A stretch of DNA of 22,667 bases. Source: a virus. Its lineage: Duplodnaviria; Heunggongvirae; Uroviricota; Caudoviricetes. Where the stretch lies: the IMG/VR virus record IMGVR_UViG_2778261501_000002, positions 1-22,667 of that record; one strand, written 5' to 3'. The notes beneath the pieces were generated by a model. It ran no database searches. It was not told where the DNA came from and saw only the letters and a program-made list of their open reading frames with translations. Numbering within the stretch: position 1 is the stretch's first letter; each line of letters begins with the position of its first letter. Below, in pieces: positions 8,491 to 22,667 of this stretch. The position numbers were made by a program, and so were the translations under genes.

Positions 8491-9530
8491 AGGCTGAAGC
8501 ATGGCGGGTCAGCAAACTTGGTGAAATACCTGATATAACGTTCGAGGAAGCGTGTGTCAGGTGGCTTGAAGAGAAAGCACATAAAAAATCGCTGGACGAT
8601 GACAAAAGCCGGATCGGATTCTGGCTTCAACATTTCGCAGGAATGCAACTAAGAGACATTACTGAATCAAAAATTTATTCAGCAATGCAGAAAATGACGA
8701 ACCGGCGTCATGAGGAAAACTGGAAACTCAGGGCAGAAGCATGCAGAAAAAAAGGGAAACCTGTTCCAGAATACACGCCAAAACCAGCGTCCGTTGCAAC
8801 GAAGGCTACGCATCTTTCATTTATAAAGGCCCTACTAAGAGCCGCAGAGCGTGAATGGAAAATGCTGGATAAGGCACCAATTATTAAAGTGCCTCAACCA
8901 AAGAATAAACGGATCCGCTGGCTGGAGCCCCATGAAGCACAAAGGCTGATTGATGAATGTCCGGAGCCATTAAAGTCTGTTGTTGAATTTGCACTGGCAA
9001 CAGGCTTAAGACGCTCGAACATCATCAACCTTGAATGGCAACAAATAGATATGCAGCGCCGGGTGGCATGGATAAACCCGGAAGAGAGTAAATCAAACCG
9101 CGCAATTGGCGTTGCGCTGAATGATACTGCATGTCGCGTATTGAAAAAACAAATCGGGAATCATCACCGTTGGGTATTTGTGTACAAGGAAAGCTGTACC
9201 AAACCAGACGGAACGAAAGCGCCAACAGTAAGGAAGATGCGGTATGACGCAAACACAGCCTGGAAAGCGGCGCTGAGACGGGCTGGTATTGATGATTTCA
9301 GATTTCACGACTTGAGACACACCTGGGCAAGTTGGCTGGTTCAAGCCGGAGTCCCGTTGTCAGTGTTACAGGAAATGGGAGGCTGGGAGTCTATCGAAAT
9401 GGTTCGTCGATATGCTCACCTTGCACCTAATCACCTTACCGAACACGCACGGCAAATAGACTCGATCCTGAACCCATCGGTCCCAAATTTGTCCCAGTCA
9501 AAAAATAAGGAAGGTACTAATGATGTGTAA
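8367..9530 (+). CDS. int: Tyrosine integrase (lambdoid P22/DLP12-type)
   Basis: 387-aa ORF, GAGGA SD 6 nt upstream of ATG 8367; conserved HDLRHTW and RRYAHL catalytic motifs; strong resemblance to enterobacterial prophage integrases as recalled. Confidence 0.92.
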
Positions 9531-9702
9531 CTTATTGATTTTAATGGTGCCGATAATAGGAGTGTAACACGCGATAAATCTTGTGTTCGGGTCTTCTTCT
9601 ACGACCTTCGCAACTACCTGATTTAACGATTTTTACGCACACTGATAATCTGGCATTCATCATGCACATGATAAACGCCCCTAAACTTTAACGGGGTGGA
9701 AA

Positions 9703-10926
9703 ATGAAATACAAGCCGGATCAATACATCATATCTGATAGTTACGGAGTTTATTACGTCAGGATTTCAATTCCTGTATGGCTTCGTAATGCATTTGGTGG
9801 AAGAAAAACTCTCGTCCGTAGTCTGAACACTTCCGATCTTCGTGTGGCTCGTAGGAAGCGTGATGTTATAGCCGACGAATTTCACCACATCAGGCAAATT
9901 GCAGAGCCGCCAAAACCGGACAGCTTGCAGGACACGATCAGCTTTTTAAAGAGCGTGGCTAAGTACGCGAAAGCTGCCCCGAAAGCATCAGCTCCGATTA
10001 TCTACCAATGCCCCTCTCTGAATAAGATGTTAGAGATTTACCTCACGCATAACGCTGATCGCCTGAAAATGGGAACATTAAGCAAGACCAGAAAAGCCGT
10101 TGAACTGTTCCTGAATTACCTGCGAAAGAAGGATGTTGAACTAAACGATATCAACCGTACCACCGTTACAGGCTGGCTTGATCATCTCCGAGAGACAAAG
10201 GCAGTCCAGACAGTGGCTAACTACCTATCAGCAATGGCAAACATTCTCGATCTTGCCTCTTCCCGATACCAGGACGCCCCACCGCTGGAAACTAACGTGT
10301 TCAGGGGGCATAAACTCAACACAGCGCAGAGCCGCCAGAGTTACGAGGCATTCACGGACGAAGAAATTACGAAGCTCATTAGCACGTTTAACAAGTTAGG
10401 AGAGGACGAATTAAGGGATGTGAGCGCCATCGCCGCTTATAGCGGAATGCGCATCAATGAAATAGCCAGTTTGAAATCTGACAATATCCGTGAAGTTGAG
10501 GGGGTGTTATGTTTCGAGGTGACGGAGGGTAAGACACGCAATGCGGCGCGGTTGGTTCCACTTCATAGTGCGATTAGAAAAATGGTTCTGGAACGCTGCC
10601 AGAAGCCGCACAACGGCTTTTTATTCTACCGTGCAAGTGTGACCAAGAGACAGGACGGCAAGCGCTCCTCATGGCACGTAAACCGCTTTGGACGGCTTAA
10701 ACGCGATATTCTCCCAGGGCAGGAAAACAAGGTGTTTCACTCGTACCGCCATGCAGTGATCAGTAAGCTAAACGCCGCCGGAGTGGATGAATCTCGTATT
10801 GCCTTGCTCGCGGGTCACTCATTTGGAGAAACTGAGTCTTTCAAGACGTATTCGAAGAGTGTTCCTGAGCGTATTATGAAGGAGTTAGCGGGGTATATTG
10901 AATTAATAAATTACAACGTCCAGTAA
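9703..10926 (+). CDS. Tyrosine recombinase/integrase (second, distinct integrase)
   Basis: 407-aa ORF; catalytic motifs MRINEIASL (box I Arg), HSYRH, GHSF, and Tyr in FKTYSK; unrelated in sequence to the upstream integrase. Confidence 0.85.
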   Translation: MKYKPDQYIISDSYGVYYVRISIPVWLRNAFGGRKTLVRSLNTSDLRVARRKRDVIADEFHHIRQIAEPPKPDSLQDTISFLKSVAKYAKAAPKASAPIIYQCPSLNKMLEIYLTHNADRLKMGTLSKTRKAVELFLNYLRKKDVELNDINRTTVTGWLDHLRETKAVQTVANYLSAMANILDLASSRYQDAPPLETNVFRGHKLNTAQSRQSYEAFTDEEITKLISTFNKLGEDELRDVSAIAAYSGMRINEIASLKSDNIREVEGVLCFEVTEGKTRNAARLVPLHSAIRKMVLERCQKPHNGFLFYRASVTKRQDGKRSSWHVNRFGRLKRDILPGQENKVFHSYRHAVISKLNAAGVDESRIALLAGHSFGETESFKTYSKSVPERIMKELAGYIELINYNVQ

Positions 10927-18486: not shown

Positions 18487-19164
18487 GTTGCCTGATAGTG
18501 CGGTGTAAGTTGGATTGTTTGCGTTAGGCTGGATGCCTGAGATGAGGACGGGATGAATGCTTTCATTACCCTACATCATTTACTTTAACATGAAATGATT
18601 TAAATGTCAACACTTATTTAAATCCCTTTCAAATTATAGCGCATTTCCACGTTGTGATCAACTCATTCATGTCATCATAAAACGCGGTCTATCGCTTTCT
18701 AACAGGTTTGAAAGCCTGAGAGTTGCAATCCCCTCCCTATCCTCTCAAATTCGCTCTCAGCGCGTCTGGGGCGTTCCGTTTGCGTTACCGCCGCCCTCTG
18801 GCACTTACTCCCGAAACCAATAGCACAACTACTGAGGGATAACGTTAGTTATCAGGATAGTAGGTGATGGTATTGGATTGAGGCTGGATGAACTGGAGCC
18901 ATCAGCGACCAGTGAATCCTTAGCCGTGGGCTAACTTTGCATGGATGAATGCGGAGCATGGAAGACAGGCAGAAGTTATGCTGAAAGACATTGCGCACAC
19001 GGCGCATAGCTTCTGTGCCTCGTTTCACGAGGGCGAAGCCCTGGCACAATCACAGACAGATGCGCTACGCTGCGTCGTGAGCGGCTGACCGAGTAGCCCC
19101 CAAAGGCGAATCAGGTCACTTGCCAGGCGATACGCGCCAGCAAAGCGAATCTTTAACAAGATCT

Positions 19165-19291
19165 TCTAAAAGCTCTCTTTTAGAGATCGCTTTTAGAATC
19201 TCTTTGTATAGAACATCAATTTGATGTGTAGTTTGCCGATCCATACATCAATTTGATGCGTATCCCATGCATCTATACATCATTTTGATGT
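19165..19291. promoter_or_regulatory. Operator/iteron-like repeat cluster
   Basis: Perfect inverted repeat TCTAAAAG-ctct-CTTTTAGA (19165-19184); three 13-bp palindromic repeats CATCA(A/T)-T-TTGATG at 19214-19226, 19246-19258 and 19278-19290 with exact 32-bp phasing. Confidence 0.55.
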
Positions 19292-20050
19292 ATAACGCCC
19301 CCAACTAACTCTGATTCATCCATGCAACAACACTAAGAGTAACGAGAGGTTATTCCTATCAAAACAACACGATAATCATAGCTAAGCCTATCTTAAATGA
19401 CAGGTAAAGATTGCCGTTGTTACATGGGTAAAGTTGCCATAGTCAGCAAGATAGTAACCATCACTCACTTTGCGTAAAGCCTTGCGCCATGCGGCTCACA
19501 GCGATCATTGTCCACAATGAGGAGTTTCATGACAGGTGCAATGTGCTGAACGAGTTTTCTAAAATGAAACGATGTTTCTTTTTCATGCCAAAATCCACCA
19601 ATTGATTAGCATTCTAATCATTTCATTACACACTCAGTTTCAAGTGCATAAACTCCGCATAATTTGTGCATACAGGCAGGTTAGCCCCGCCCTCGCCTAA
19701 CAACCTTACATTTATCAGATTTAAATCAATGAGATAGACAATAACCACACACAAGCATTGGTAGTGTGATGTTCCGCTGTTGCCGCTGTTCTTCGTGCAG
19801 AGTTGAGGATTTGGCAATGTTCAAACACATGTTTATAAATGCCAACATCATGATTTTGTTCAAGATATTTAGAGGAGAAGAAATTTTCGATCTGGAGGCG
19901 GCCCTGGAGGTCGTTAAGCACTGGACGCAATCGCGCCATTTACCACACACAAGACAGTTCGATTTTTGATCATTTATATTGCAACTTACTGAAATTGATC
20001 ATATTGTTTGTTTCGTTGAGTTTAGATGTGTGTCTTTATGGGAGGGTAAA

Positions 20051-20611
20051 TTGAACAGAGCAGTAGTGTTAGACGAACAGCAAGCCAAAGCGATCAGGGA
20101 GTGGCTAAACGCTCATAACAAGAGCCTGATAGCTGACGTTACGTTAATGATGCAAGCCGCTGTACTGCGTGTGGGGGATGCCGTAGCGTTACGCTTCGAC
20201 GAAGTGATCAACGGTGAGATTGACATAGAAGAACAGAAGACAGGGAAGCGTAAAGCCCTCACTCTCCCTGCTCCAGTGGTGCAGATGATTGCTCGTCGCC
20301 GTGCTGAGTATCCGCATGATGTGCATGTGTTCAGAAGCCAGCGTAACCGATCAATGAACAAGCAAGCGCCTGTACGACGCGAAGAAGTGAGCAAGCAGAT
20401 CGCAGAGGCCGCTAAAGCTATCGGTATTCATGGCACTGTATCAGCTCACAGCTTCCGCAAAGCTGGCGGGAATGCCATCTACAAGCGTTCAGCAAACAAC
20501 ATCGCTTTAGCTATGACCGTGCTTAATCACAGCAACATCACTGACACCAGGCGCTATCTGGATTTAGACAAGCAAGCCGTTAGCCGTGTGATCAATGAGA
20601 TGGACTTATAA
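20051..20611 (+). CDS. Small tyrosine recombinase, catalytic domain only (~186 aa)
   Basis: GGAGGG SD 4 nt upstream of in-frame TTG 20051 (the track start at 19979 is also TTG); motifs LRVGDAVALRF (box I Arg), HSFRKAGG and TRRY (catalytic Tyr); no N-terminal arm/core-binding domain. Confidence 0.65.
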   Translation: MNRAVVLDEQQAKAIREWLNAHNKSLIADVTLMMQAAVLRVGDAVALRFDEVINGEIDIEEQKTGKRKALTLPAPVVQMIARRRAEYPHDVHVFRSQRNRSMNKQAPVRREEVSKQIAEAAKAIGIHGTVSAHSFRKAGGNAIYKRSANNIALAMTVLNHSNITDTRRYLDLDKQAVSRVINEMDL

Positions 20612-20621
20612 GGAGATACGC

Positions 20622-20819
20622 ATGAAACGCTTGCTTGTGCTGACGCTGACAGTAATGCCAGTCCTGGCGAATGCCGGACAGATAACCCTGATTCTCAGTG
20701 ACGAACAGGAGACAGACAACGCGAAGATTTGCGTTTATTCCAACGCCAACTTTACGGAGACAGTGACGCTCAGGCCGTCGCAGCAATGCCGCTACACAAT
20801 GACCTTTGAAGAGGAGTAA
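20622..20819 (+). CDS. Small secreted/periplasmic protein (65 aa) with signal peptide
   Basis: AGGAG SD 6 nt upstream of ATG 20622; N-terminal signal-like MKRLLVLTLTVMPVLANA; two Cys in the mature part. Confidence 0.5.
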   Translation: MKRLLVLTLTVMPVLANAGQITLILSDEQETDNAKICVYSNANFTETVTLRPSQQCRYTMTFEEE

Positions 20820-20877
20820 CAATTGAAGAAGGAAGACAAGCAGATAACCAGCGTGGTCTGGTGCGGTGTATAAGTAA

Positions 20878-21357
20878 TCACTGCTTGGAATCACGTAGGA
20901 TCAGAGACAATATCCACCACCAGCGACGACGCAGCCAACTAACATCACTGAACAGCTTCCCATCAGATGTAGTAACATACACCCCTCCGCGATGATGCAC
21001 CTTATTATGGTGAGCCTTATTGATGAATGGTACTTCTAAGATCATTTCATCACGGGCTTTTAATCGGCGTGGCAACATGGGGCTGATCATGTATTCATCA
21101 CAATGTTCGTTAGAACAATCGCTAAGGCGTCCGCTGGCGGTTACTATGCCCGCCGAACTTATCGTCACATCATGGGCGCTTTTGTTGGAAACATAAATTC
21201 TGTCTTCATACTGATCGCAACCTAAGAAAAGGCGTAGATCTGTTCTGGATTTTAATAGCTGGAAAATGGATAGTGCAAACCCAGCCCATGCGGCAAGCAT
21301 GGTCAGATTATCAACATTAAGCAACCAATCTATCAAAGTTCCATCCCTTGAGAGCAA
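20878..21357 (-). CDS. Hypothetical membrane protein, start uncertain
   Basis: One predicted TM helix (LTMLAAWAGFALSIFQLL); Trp/Arg-rich C-terminus; candidate starts are TTG 21357 or ATG 21300. Confidence 0.35.
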   Translation of the reverse strand: MLSRDGTLIDWLLNVDNLTMLAAWAGFALSIFQLLKSRTDLRLFLGCDQYEDRIYVSNKSAHDVTISSAGIVTASGRLSDCSNEHCDEYMISPMLPRRLKARDEMILEVPFINKAHHNKVHHRGGVYVTTSDGKLFSDVSWLRRRWWWILSLILRDSKQ

Positions 21358-21560
21358 AGATAATTAGCAATTCCTTGATGCTGTAAGTCAGTCAATTGGA
21401 AGTAGGAATCGAGTACGATTATGACTTGCGTGGCATTATCAGCATGAACAGAACCAGGGGTATCAGGAGGAAGCGAACCATCAAGGATGGCAGTAAAGTA
21501 ACCCGATGAGATAGAGACTTTCAGGAAGCAATTGGGTAAAAATTCGTAACGTTCACTCAT
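21333..21560 (-). CDS. Hypothetical protein (75 aa)
   Basis: GAGGTGG SD upstream of ATG 21558-21560 (MSERYEF...); the track's longer 104-aa start at 21647 is less likely. Confidence 0.4.
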   Translation of the reverse strand: MSERYEFLPNCFLKVSISSGYFTAILDGSLPPDTPGSVHADNATQVIIVLDSYFQLTDLQHQGIANYLCSQGMEL

Positions 21561-21723
21561 AACCACCTCATTTTCAGATTGTTTCTGCAAAGCGTACATT
21601 ACGAATTTTATTCTTTTACCGCATTTCAAACCAAATGACAATTCCATTGAATCAGTTGAGGATTTTAACCCTCACCGAAGATAACATAACCTCAAAATGT
21701 CTATCGCTTCATTGAGGAAATGT

Positions 21724-22497
21724 ATGTCTACTGAAAATTTTGTCACCTTCTGGTTAGCCAGAGCCGATCTTCCATACTTTCTTGAACCCCATGAATTTTA
21801 CGTTTCTGAGGCAAGGCGGCGGCTTCTCTCTCAGTTTGGTGATTTAGAACAAGAAGCAGAGAAGAGAGAACAACAGTTTTTGGAGACTACTGCTGAGTAT
21901 TTTGATCAAGATAACGATGACCCAATGGCGGCCTACGAGCAAGCCTATCATGAGGGAATTTATTATGTACGGTCGCTTCTGGAGATGCAAAATACCGTAT
22001 TGTTGGCGTTGACAGCAGGTATGTATCATCAGTTTGATAAAAAACTAAGAGAACATACTATCAAAGAGCTAAGTAATTGGTGTGAAAGAGAATTGATTAC
22101 CCCCATGATCTGGAATTTAACTTTCCATCAGCTAATTGATTTGCTCGAATGGATTGGCCTCACAATCAATGGAACCGAATACGGAGAAAGGATAAAAGCC
22201 TGTAACTTGGTGGTAAACGTATACAAGCATGGAGACGGCCCTGCACATCAAACACTATCAGTTGATCATCCTGAGTATTACCCAAACCCCACCGATGTTA
22301 GAGGCACGCAGATTGTCCCTAACCATGACGATTTACATGTCTCAGAAGATCAATTTGTAGATTTTGCTAACGCAATAACTGCTTTCTGGAACGCGGTTCC
22401 AGAAAATTGTTACTACTCAGATCTTAGAGAAGAACCCAAATGGTTGGATAGAGTTGTGACAAGATTCGAAAAAAAGCATAGGGGCAATAGGGGCTGA
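21724..22497 (+). CDS. Hypothetical protein (257 aa), AT-rich cargo gene
   Basis: GAGGAAA SD 4 nt upstream of ATG 21724 (ATG 21697 is an alternative); no family recognised. Confidence 0.5.
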   Translation: MSTENFVTFWLARADLPYFLEPHEFYVSEARRRLLSQFGDLEQEAEKREQQFLETTAEYFDQDNDDPMAAYEQAYHEGIYYVRSLLEMQNTVLLALTAGMYHQFDKKLREHTIKELSNWCERELITPMIWNLTFHQLIDLLEWIGLTINGTEYGERIKACNLVVNVYKHGDGPAHQTLSVDHPEYYPNPTDVRGTQIVPNHDDLHVSEDQFVDFANAITAFWNAVPENCYYSDLREEPKWLDRVVTRFEKKHRGNRG

Positions 22498-22505
22498 TTA
22501 GCCCC
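22490..22505. terminator. GC-rich hairpin between convergent genes
   Basis: GGGGCT-gatt-AGCCCC overlapping the stop of the 257-aa gene; no clear T-run on either strand. Confidence 0.3.
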
Positions 22506-22508
22506 ATC

Positions 22509-22667
22509 TCAAAACATCAAGTTTGCAGCTCGCGCCAACTTGATTTCCTCTCGCTCTTCCTGCTTCTTAGCAAGCCAGGCTTTCCCCTCTGGTGTTGCCA
22601 GGAATTTACGGGCGTGAATCTTACGGTTGTTGCGCTTCGTGGCTGCTTTTTGGTTAGCTTTTGACAT
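22509..22667 (-). CDS. Small basic protein ORF reaching the window edge (52 aa if the ATG at 22665-22667 is the true start)
   Basis: Open frame from the window edge to TGA at 22509-22511; lysine/arginine-rich; possibly 5'-truncated by the window. Confidence 0.3.
   Translation of the reverse strand: MSKANQKAATKRNNRKIHARKFLATPEGKAWLAKKQEEREEIKLARAANLMF

Follow-up and report, generated by a model that had tools for sequence, protein, structure and literature searches.

Small membrane-anchored proteins that exclude phages or abort their infection form a general class. HEPN-MNT toxins (SO_3166, PDB 5yep; 7ae2; 8xdj) are ~130–140 amino acids (aa) long, carry the Rx4H motif and are paired with an MNT nucleotidyltransferase antitoxin. 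HepS is a HEPN protein that acts alone in abortive infection and is encoded in a Gifsy-1 prophage accessory locus. It is kept as a tetramer without activity until the phage tail-tip protein J triggers it to cut tRNA anticodon loops (PMC13043305). Small anti-phage systems are also carried by hotspots of the P2/P4 type: short intervals with conserved flanks and differing content (PMC9122126). Here we analyse a segment at the right edge of a 22,667-nucleotide (nt) stretch of viral DNA (positions 1 to 22,667 of the IMG/VR record IMGVR_UViG_2778261501_000002, Caudoviricetes), to which we refer in full as ‘the window’. The segment (20622–22667) belongs to a satellite-like island and encodes, beside a tyrosine recombinase, five proteins that we name after their lengths in residues: p65, p152, p75, p257 and p52.

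p257 resembles HepS (PDB 9oik) in being a lone cytosolic protein of ~220–260 aa with a HEPN-type helical fold, in being encoded in an accessory locus of an integrated phage-like element and in having no conserved partner. The two proteins have no detectable sequence similarity, and while HepS carries the canonical R100-x4-H105, the motif of p257 is NVYKHGxG, and Arg is missing from its positions −4 to −6. By analogy, HepS is the closest functional precedent for p257. Compared to the HEPN-MNT toxins, p257 has double the length, with additional helices as well as a beta-hairpin, and lacks both an MNT neighbour and the motif. p152 – small, predicted to be single-pass, found in prophage and satellite accessory loci, and with some relatives located beside Abi genes – is similar to the membrane exclusion class, but neither its sequence nor its structure links it to a named member: the motifs NxSPHAVT and GRxGxY and the Arg/Trp tail set it apart as a family of its own. 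Finally, the segment resembles P2/P4-type hotspots in that its content varies between flanks conserved in related elements. However, the element differs from both P2 and P4, the genes on either side encode a 186-aa recombinase and a 52-aa protein, and only one candidate defence gene (PDC-S67) was recognised among the relatives examined, several of which carry cargo that looks non-defensive.

We estimate the probability that the main modules of the segment, p257 and p75–p152, defend lysogen and island from attack by other phages at roughly 0.5. It is fold similarity and genomic neighbourhood, rather than a family match or an experiment, that point to this role.

The cargo hotspot

The recombinase gene (20051–20611, + strand) lies immediately upstream of the five cargo-end genes, which follow in convergent, divergent and again convergent arrangement, as described in an earlier note made from the sequence alone. 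The recombinase is recognised as PF00589 (E = 3.9e-16, residues 6–175) and as a phrog_216 integrase (E = 5e-27); its 186 aa comprise the catalytic domain only. It has no N-terminal DNA-binding domain and is distinct from the 407-aa integrase of the island. The DNA of the window is part of an E. coli chromosome. The stretch 19900–22667 is 100% identical in only 9 of 5,426 complete E. coli genomes (e.g. AR_0128) and is absent from the other 5,417. In the RefSeq annotation of AR_0128, a tyrosine-type recombinase is followed by five hypothetical proteins – all of the open reading frames (ORFs) claimed in the earlier note, including those of 75 and 257 aa, are present – and then, ~600 nt past the window, by tRNA-Thr (thrW) and proA.

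A recombinase that is 96–99% identical on the aa level is found in six other loci (L002, L003 and L014–L017) from E. coli, Citrobacter, Pseudenterobacter and Buttiauxella, located at thrW, tRNA-Leu or other sites, while the genes downstream of it differ: the six loci have five different cargos. DNA identity among the loci covers ~650 nt upstream of the recombinase and the recombinase gene itself, ending at its stop codon or just past p65. The cargos include a coiled-coil zinc-ribbon protein with a YecR lipoprotein and a secreted protein; secreted proteins encoded behind a p65 homologue; a helix-turn-helix (HTH) regulator with a TauE-like membrane protein; and a glyoxalase-like protein with a GNAT protein (the TauE-like and glyoxalase-like assignments were judged from the translated sequence only). 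In the L003 hotspot, a protein of 202 aa was recognised as the PADLOC candidate PDC-S67 (E = 4e-27); nine other hotspot cargo proteins yielded no significant PADLOC match, a single weak match to Cas8b being probably spurious, and several of them have the look of metabolic or envelope proteins. Directly 3′ of the recombinase, three loci encode a 134–136-aa coiled-coil protein with a C-terminal zinc ribbon (L002 12685–13095, L014 7556–7966 and L003 12710–13114), which in L003 is followed by the PDC-S67-matching protein.

On the far side of the segment, the p52 gene (22509–22667, − strand) is retained, with p52 homologues 73% identical at the same position in three loci (L002, L014 and L004). As the recombinase stays constant in front of differing downstream genes and p52 is kept beyond them, we consider these two genes to be the flanks and the genes between them to be exchangeable cargo. 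The segment is very probably the variable cargo hotspot of a thrW-integrated, satellite-like island that bears a capsid gene, and p52 is an island backbone gene. The earlier proposal of a horizontally acquired accessory module beside a recombinase is well supported by the attachment (att) repeats at tRNA-Thr, by the presence in nine of the 5,426 genomes and by the association of the same recombinase with other cargo.

Two further points of the earlier note had to be corrected. The p52 ORF, which is very basic (isoelectric point, pI, of 10.8), had been thought to run past the window. However, its ATG constitutes the final three bases of the window, with the ribosome-binding site GGAGGGG located 6 nt upstream in the flanking genome; the frame can be extended by at most 11 codons, to a TTG, and RefSeq annotates a complete coding sequence of 52 aa (WP_060614984.1). 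The description of the genes as uniformly AT-rich was overstated: GC content is 43.6% (0.436) for the segment, 45.3% (0.453) for the island and 46.8% (0.468) for the window, and, gene by gene, 0.51 for p65, 0.45 for p152, 0.42 for both p75 and p257, and 0.49 for p52.

Each of the five cargo-end genes has homologues elsewhere, and substitutions relative to the orthologues concentrate in the third codon position: counts at positions 1/2/3 are 50/19/125 for p257, 23/8/53 for p152, 7/4/20 for p65 and 7/6/17 for p52, with a weaker bias for p75 (12/9/17). On these two grounds the five ORFs are more than chance: they are intact, look protein-coding, and none is a pseudogene; pseudogenisation, which the earlier note had named as a reason to abandon its proposal, is not seen. 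Scans of the six proteins against Pfam, PHROGs, PADLOC and NCBIfam returned the recombinase domain and two PHROGs without assigned function, and nothing else; defence models were taken from PADLOC-DB v2.0 (2023). We detected no Rfam RNA family anywhere in the window, and a literature search on the six RefSeq protein accessions found no paper.

The ~650 nt located 5′ of the recombinase (about 19400–20050) are free of ORFs and are 85–89% conserved, in one orientation, in the six other loci. An invertible switch operated by the small recombinase was considered and rejected, since the upstream DNA has the same orientation in all seven loci and the sole long-range inverted repeat (17 nt, 88%) is unremarkable. 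Integron-like cassettes were likewise rejected: the genes lie in both orientations, and between 18300 and 22667 there are no attC-like recurrent direct or inverted repeats around them, only short pairs that are probably due to chance.

The p257 family

p257 (21724–22497, + strand) is a solitary 257-aa protein and a candidate abortive-infection effector. Its family comprises 57 clusters from Enterobacterales, Burkholderiales and other groups, all of them unnamed. An alignment of 39 members (A1) contains 21 invariant residues, among them H23, R33, H102, K106, R109 and the run N165-V-Y-K-H-G-x-G172 (NVYKHGxG, residues 165–172). The AlphaFold2 model is confident (predicted local distance difference test, pLDDT, of 91.7; predicted template modelling score, pTM, of 0.86) and all-alpha, with extra helices and a beta-hairpin. 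As judged by structure comparison, the four-helix up-down bundle that forms the HEPN core is recognisable in it. Foldseek searches against PDB and BFVD gave no match below E = 0.02. The matches of the structure comparison include, lower down, Csm6, AbiA, Las1, sacsin, LsoA, Csx1 and HepS.

Sequence-based searches were largely silent. p257 itself has no Pfam match at E ≤ 1 beyond noise. A weak match to the HEPN family PF05168 (E = 0.005, below the gathering threshold) came from a single sequence out of the 39, which does not belong to the ten most divergent. The PDB sequence-profile search yielded no HEPN protein and one irrelevant weak match, and tblastn against 50,697 phage records found nothing, despite a PHROG match. 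We conclude that p257 is predicted to have a HEPN-like fold and may act like a HEPN nuclease, but we do not file it as an established member of the HEPN family. One homologue, the 291-aa Enterobacter asburiae protein P0026, has a C-terminal extension of ~30 aa (…IKSIARRYGLSRAEVSRIISD) that is HTH-like and is probably the source of the lone HTH_28 match among the family members.

Each of the eight genomic contexts in which we inspected a p257 homologue is a mobile element. Homologues are encoded behind the tail-fibre genes at the end of a Moellerella prophage, in a lambdoid prophage at the Q region, on an integrase/AlpA island, on plasmids and in two defence islands. Of these islands, the first contains AbiJ, UvrD and two AAA_15/21 pairs, and the second contains GmrSD, AAA_15 and a type I restriction-modification system. 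Homologues with at most 56% identity are solitary and share no neighbour, while relatives with at least 70% identity adjoin p75.

The p75–p152 operon

p75 (21333–21560, − strand; 75 aa) and p152 (20878–21336, − strand; 152 aa) are the first and the second gene of a two-gene operon, the stop codon of p75 overlapping the start of p152 by 4 nt. p75 is small, acidic (pI 4.2) and cytosolic, and p152 (pI 8.5) is predicted to be membrane-anchored. The single-transmembrane protein with a Trp/Arg-rich tail recognised in the earlier note is p152: it has one N-terminal hydrophobic helix and the C-terminal tail WLRRRWWWILSLIL, and the overall layout is a transmembrane helix, a beta-rich middle domain and an Arg/Trp-rich C-terminal helix.

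The p152 family is narrow, with 32 clusters in the homologue search and 25 representatives at E ≤ 1e-3 among 1.84 billion proteins. The representatives are 145–180 aa long, except for three short fragments and a weak match to a 1,782-aa repeat protein, and have in common the transmembrane helix, a beta-rich domain with the NxSPHAVT and GRxGxY motifs, and an RRxWW helix. One distant homologue adjoins the portal gene gpQ of a P2-like prophage, with host-type genes on its other side and no gpA seen at the locus; in P2, it is on this side of gpQ that the gpA–gpQ interval, a documented defence hotspot, is located (PMC9122126). Another distant homologue is encoded immediately 3′ of AbiTii. No p75 homologue was found near either of these two genes, which suggests that p75 is an accessory of p152 and not an obligate antitoxin. 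p75 has nine homologue clusters, all of 75 aa save for one longer gene call and one fragment. The p75–p152 pairing is kept in Raoultella and in Serratia, the latter in a different element that lacks p257.

The layout of the operon – two small genes with a 4-nt overlap, the first product acidic and the second basic – is that of type II toxin-antitoxin systems, and neither protein belongs to a known toxin or antitoxin family as judged by Pfam, PADLOC and NCBIfam. The divergent region between p75 and p257 (21561–21723) presumably contains both promoters; promoter-like matches are no more common in it than in shuffled sequence. An imperfect 19-nt inverted repeat spans the start of p75 (21539–21557 / 21591–21609, 84% complementary).

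One system or several modules

A Raoultella island (L004 6582–8459) contains a p52-p257-p75-p152 block that is syntenic with 20878–22667 of the window. The proteins of this block are 73–85% identical to ours, while the recombinase (33%) and the capsid protein (27%) of the same island are far more diverged. It seems that islands without a close relationship, but with thrW as their common site, exchange the cargo next to att.

Such conservation is what one would see if p257, p75 and p152 were a single integrated system, with p257 as the effector and p75 and the membrane protein p152 co-regulated with it through the divergent promoter region, for example as a membrane sensor that controls a cytosolic nuclease. 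A third context, at the actS/xdhA site (L031), again has divergent homologues of p75 (51%) and p257 (71%). However, the Serratia p75–p152 pair occurs without p257, the inspected p257 homologues of at most 56% identity all stand alone, the distant p152 homologues lack both partners, and neighbouring cargo can be transferred together without any functional link. We therefore regard a single three-gene system as possible yet unlikely. Rather than the one module proposed in the earlier note, the cargo is a mosaic of separable accessory modules – at least three of them, p65, p75–p152 and p257 – plus the backbone gene p52. Within the clade of close relatives, p257 and p75–p152 may nevertheless be functionally linked.

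p65

p65 (20622–20819, + strand; 65 aa, two Cys) is the small signal-peptide protein of the earlier note, predicted to be secreted to the periplasm. By inspection, its N-terminus, MKRLLVLTLTVMPVLANA followed by GQ after the cleavage site, reads as a Sec signal peptide, with a hydropathy of 1.64 over residues 5–23: in MKR-LLVLTLTVMPVL-ANA, cut before G, a basic region, a hydrophobic core and an AxA cleavage site follow one another, and there is no lipobox Cys. The gene, preceded by the ribosome-binding site AAGGAG, starts 10 nt past the stop codon of the recombinase, and p65 is probably a periplasmic protein co-transcribed with the recombinase. p65 belongs to phrog_4641 (E = 7e-15). Homologues with up to 48% identity are encoded in 136 phage records, mostly of lytic Phapecoctavirus. 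A p65 homologue is also found 3′ of the recombinase in L015–L019, and this shared order indicates that p65 travels with the recombinase.

The host island and its surroundings

The host island is 13.7 kb long and is integrated in tRNA-Thr (thrW), extending from 9541 to the end of the window at 22667 and on to ~23271. It is bounded by 28-nt direct repeats (L001 9642–9669 and 23345–23372; window coordinates are L001 coordinates minus 101), one copy of which is the 3′ end of tRNA-Thr. The left repeat is at 9541–9568 of the window; the right repeat and the tRNA gene lie just past it, so that the last ~600 nt of the island are outside. A third att copy was not found, and the idea that the cargo is the leftover of an older element was rejected.

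The island encodes the 407-aa integrase (9703–10926), HTH, replication-type and DUF6945-type proteins, a lambda gpE-family major capsid protein (PF03864) and a 614-aa tape-measure-like protein (phrog_16051; labelled ‘TolA’ in RefSeq). Neither a terminase nor a portal was recognised among its genes, and the capsid protein has one distant match, at 27% identity, among the 50,697 phage records. The island is satellite-like and may represent an undescribed type of phage satellite.

Between the replication-type genes and the small recombinase, ~1.5 kb (18487–20050) are devoid of a credible ORF. Within this stretch, an 18-nt palindromic unit, ACATCAATTTGATGTGTA, is repeated in three copies at exactly 32-bp spacing (19213–19294), in an iteron- or operator-like manner. 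To the left of the island, positions 1–9540 of the window are occupied by a second, decayed prophage in tandem, with its own integrase (8412–9530), tail sheath and tube genes, and truncated terminase, tail-assembly and ymfL pseudogenes. With this prophage beside the island, thrW holds a tandem array of elements.

Discussion

If the two main cargo modules are anti-phage, their mode of action may be sketched as follows. By analogy with HepS, p257 would be a stand-alone HEPN-fold protein, probably kept as an inactive oligomer until it meets a phage-derived cue; once activated, it would cut RNA, either tRNA or mRNA, and thus stop phage production. Its putative active site would be built from N165-x-Y-K-H169-G-x-G together with H102/K106/R109 and H23/R33, replacing the canonical Rx4-6H. 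p152, with its transmembrane helix, beta-sandwich-like domain and amphipathic Arg/Trp tail, may be an effector located at the inner membrane that either excludes phages or aborts infection, and the acidic p75 may be its modulator or antidote.

The phage defence, superinfection exclusion or toxin/immunity function suggested in the earlier note is plausible in view of the HEPN-like p257, its defence-island neighbours and the location of p152 relatives beside AbiTii and a portal gene, whereas the PADLOC check proposed there found no match for the cargo proteins, and relatives carry non-defence cargo. Several observations weigh against an anti-phage role. p257 lacks the defining Rx4-6H, having L/V/V at 162–164 (−4 to −6 of the invariant H169), and the Arg at 161 (−8, an x7 spacing) is the majority residue only, with Asn in the p257 of the window. 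The AlphaFold2 model of p152 is poor (pLDDT 46) and served for secondary-structure layout only. None of the five cargo proteins has a Pfam or NCBIfam match, none of the six proteins matches PADLOC (E ≤ 1), and neither do ten distant relatives of p152 and p257 (E ≤ 0.1). The hotspot in relatives also contains cargo that is not obviously defensive, i.e. YecR lipoprotein, GNAT, glyoxalase-like, TauE-like and secreted proteins, and the p65 homologues in virulent phages suit a role that benefits the phage just as well as one in host defence.

Apart from the three-gene system discussed above, the alternative that fares best is that the genes are host-fitness or envelope ‘morons’, altering the cell surface, stress tolerance or colonisation in the manner of Bor/Lom-type prophage cargo. 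The predicted secretion of p65 and membrane anchoring of p152 fit such a role, as does the YecR, signal-peptide, GNAT, glyoxalase-like and TauE-like content of the hotspot in relatives. On the other hand, p257 is cytosolic, HEPN-like and present in defence islands. Of the p152 relatives, one adjoins AbiTii and another the P2-like portal gene, on the side where P2 has its gpA–gpQ hotspot. Strictly lytic phages also encode homologues of p65, and in such phages a role in host colonisation makes little sense. All in all, we find this alternative distinctly unlikely.

We give lower odds again to addiction modules that mainly stabilise the island in the chromosome, with p75–p152 as a toxin-antitoxin-like pair and p257 as a toxin-like nuclease. 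The feature that invites this interpretation is the order in the operon, where the gene of an acidic 75-aa protein precedes that of a basic 152-aa protein and the stop codon of the first overlaps the start of the second. It is countered by the lack of matches to known toxin or antitoxin families, by p75 having no recognisable DNA-binding domain, by the distant p152 homologues that have no p75 partner, and by p257 having neither an MNT gene nor any other conserved neighbour.

It is improbable that these are life-cycle genes with which a satellite exploits its helper phage, e.g. by interfering with helper assembly or lysis timing. The island does have the look of a satellite, as it encodes capsid and tape-measure-like proteins, and the genes by which satellites interfere with helpers are often similar to those of defence; however, the cargo is missing from the otherwise near-identical islands L002 and L015, and so does not perform core functions, and homologues are carried by plasmids and ordinary prophages. 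Finally, decaying or spurious ORFs without function are hardly tenable: while no library gives an annotated function and the third-position bias of p75 is weak, the conservation already contradicts this explanation, with five intact ORFs that are 100% identical in nine genomes, lengths conserved across genera, strong third-position bias in four of the five, and a p257 with a pLDDT of 92 and 21 invariant residues in 39 sequences.

A bolder proposal, which we consider fairly unlikely, is that p257 represents a catalytically distinct branch of HEPN-fold defence nucleases, centred on an invariant N-x-Y-K-H-G-x-G in place of Rx4-6H, and works in the Enterobacterales clade as part of a three-part system with the divergent p75–p152, in which the cytosolic nuclease would be linked to a membrane-anchored sensor or effector. 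If true, this three-part defence architecture would be one that is absent from PADLOC-DB v2.0 (2023).

The segment amounts to a short and delimited list of candidates, of which p257, HEPN-like without the HEPN motif, is the one most worth testing. Were p257 to prove an active anti-phage nuclease, it would found a new family of stand-alone HEPN-fold proteins lacking the motif by which HEPN enzymes are recognised; motif- and hidden Markov model-based defence finders miss such proteins. The p152 family, although very rare (~25 clusters per 1.8 billion), recurs beside Abi genes and is a compact candidate for exclusion at the level of the membrane. The 13.7-kb capsid-encoding island, in turn, with its well-defined variable hotspot, would add to the satellite-like platforms by which small accessory genes move between Enterobacterales.

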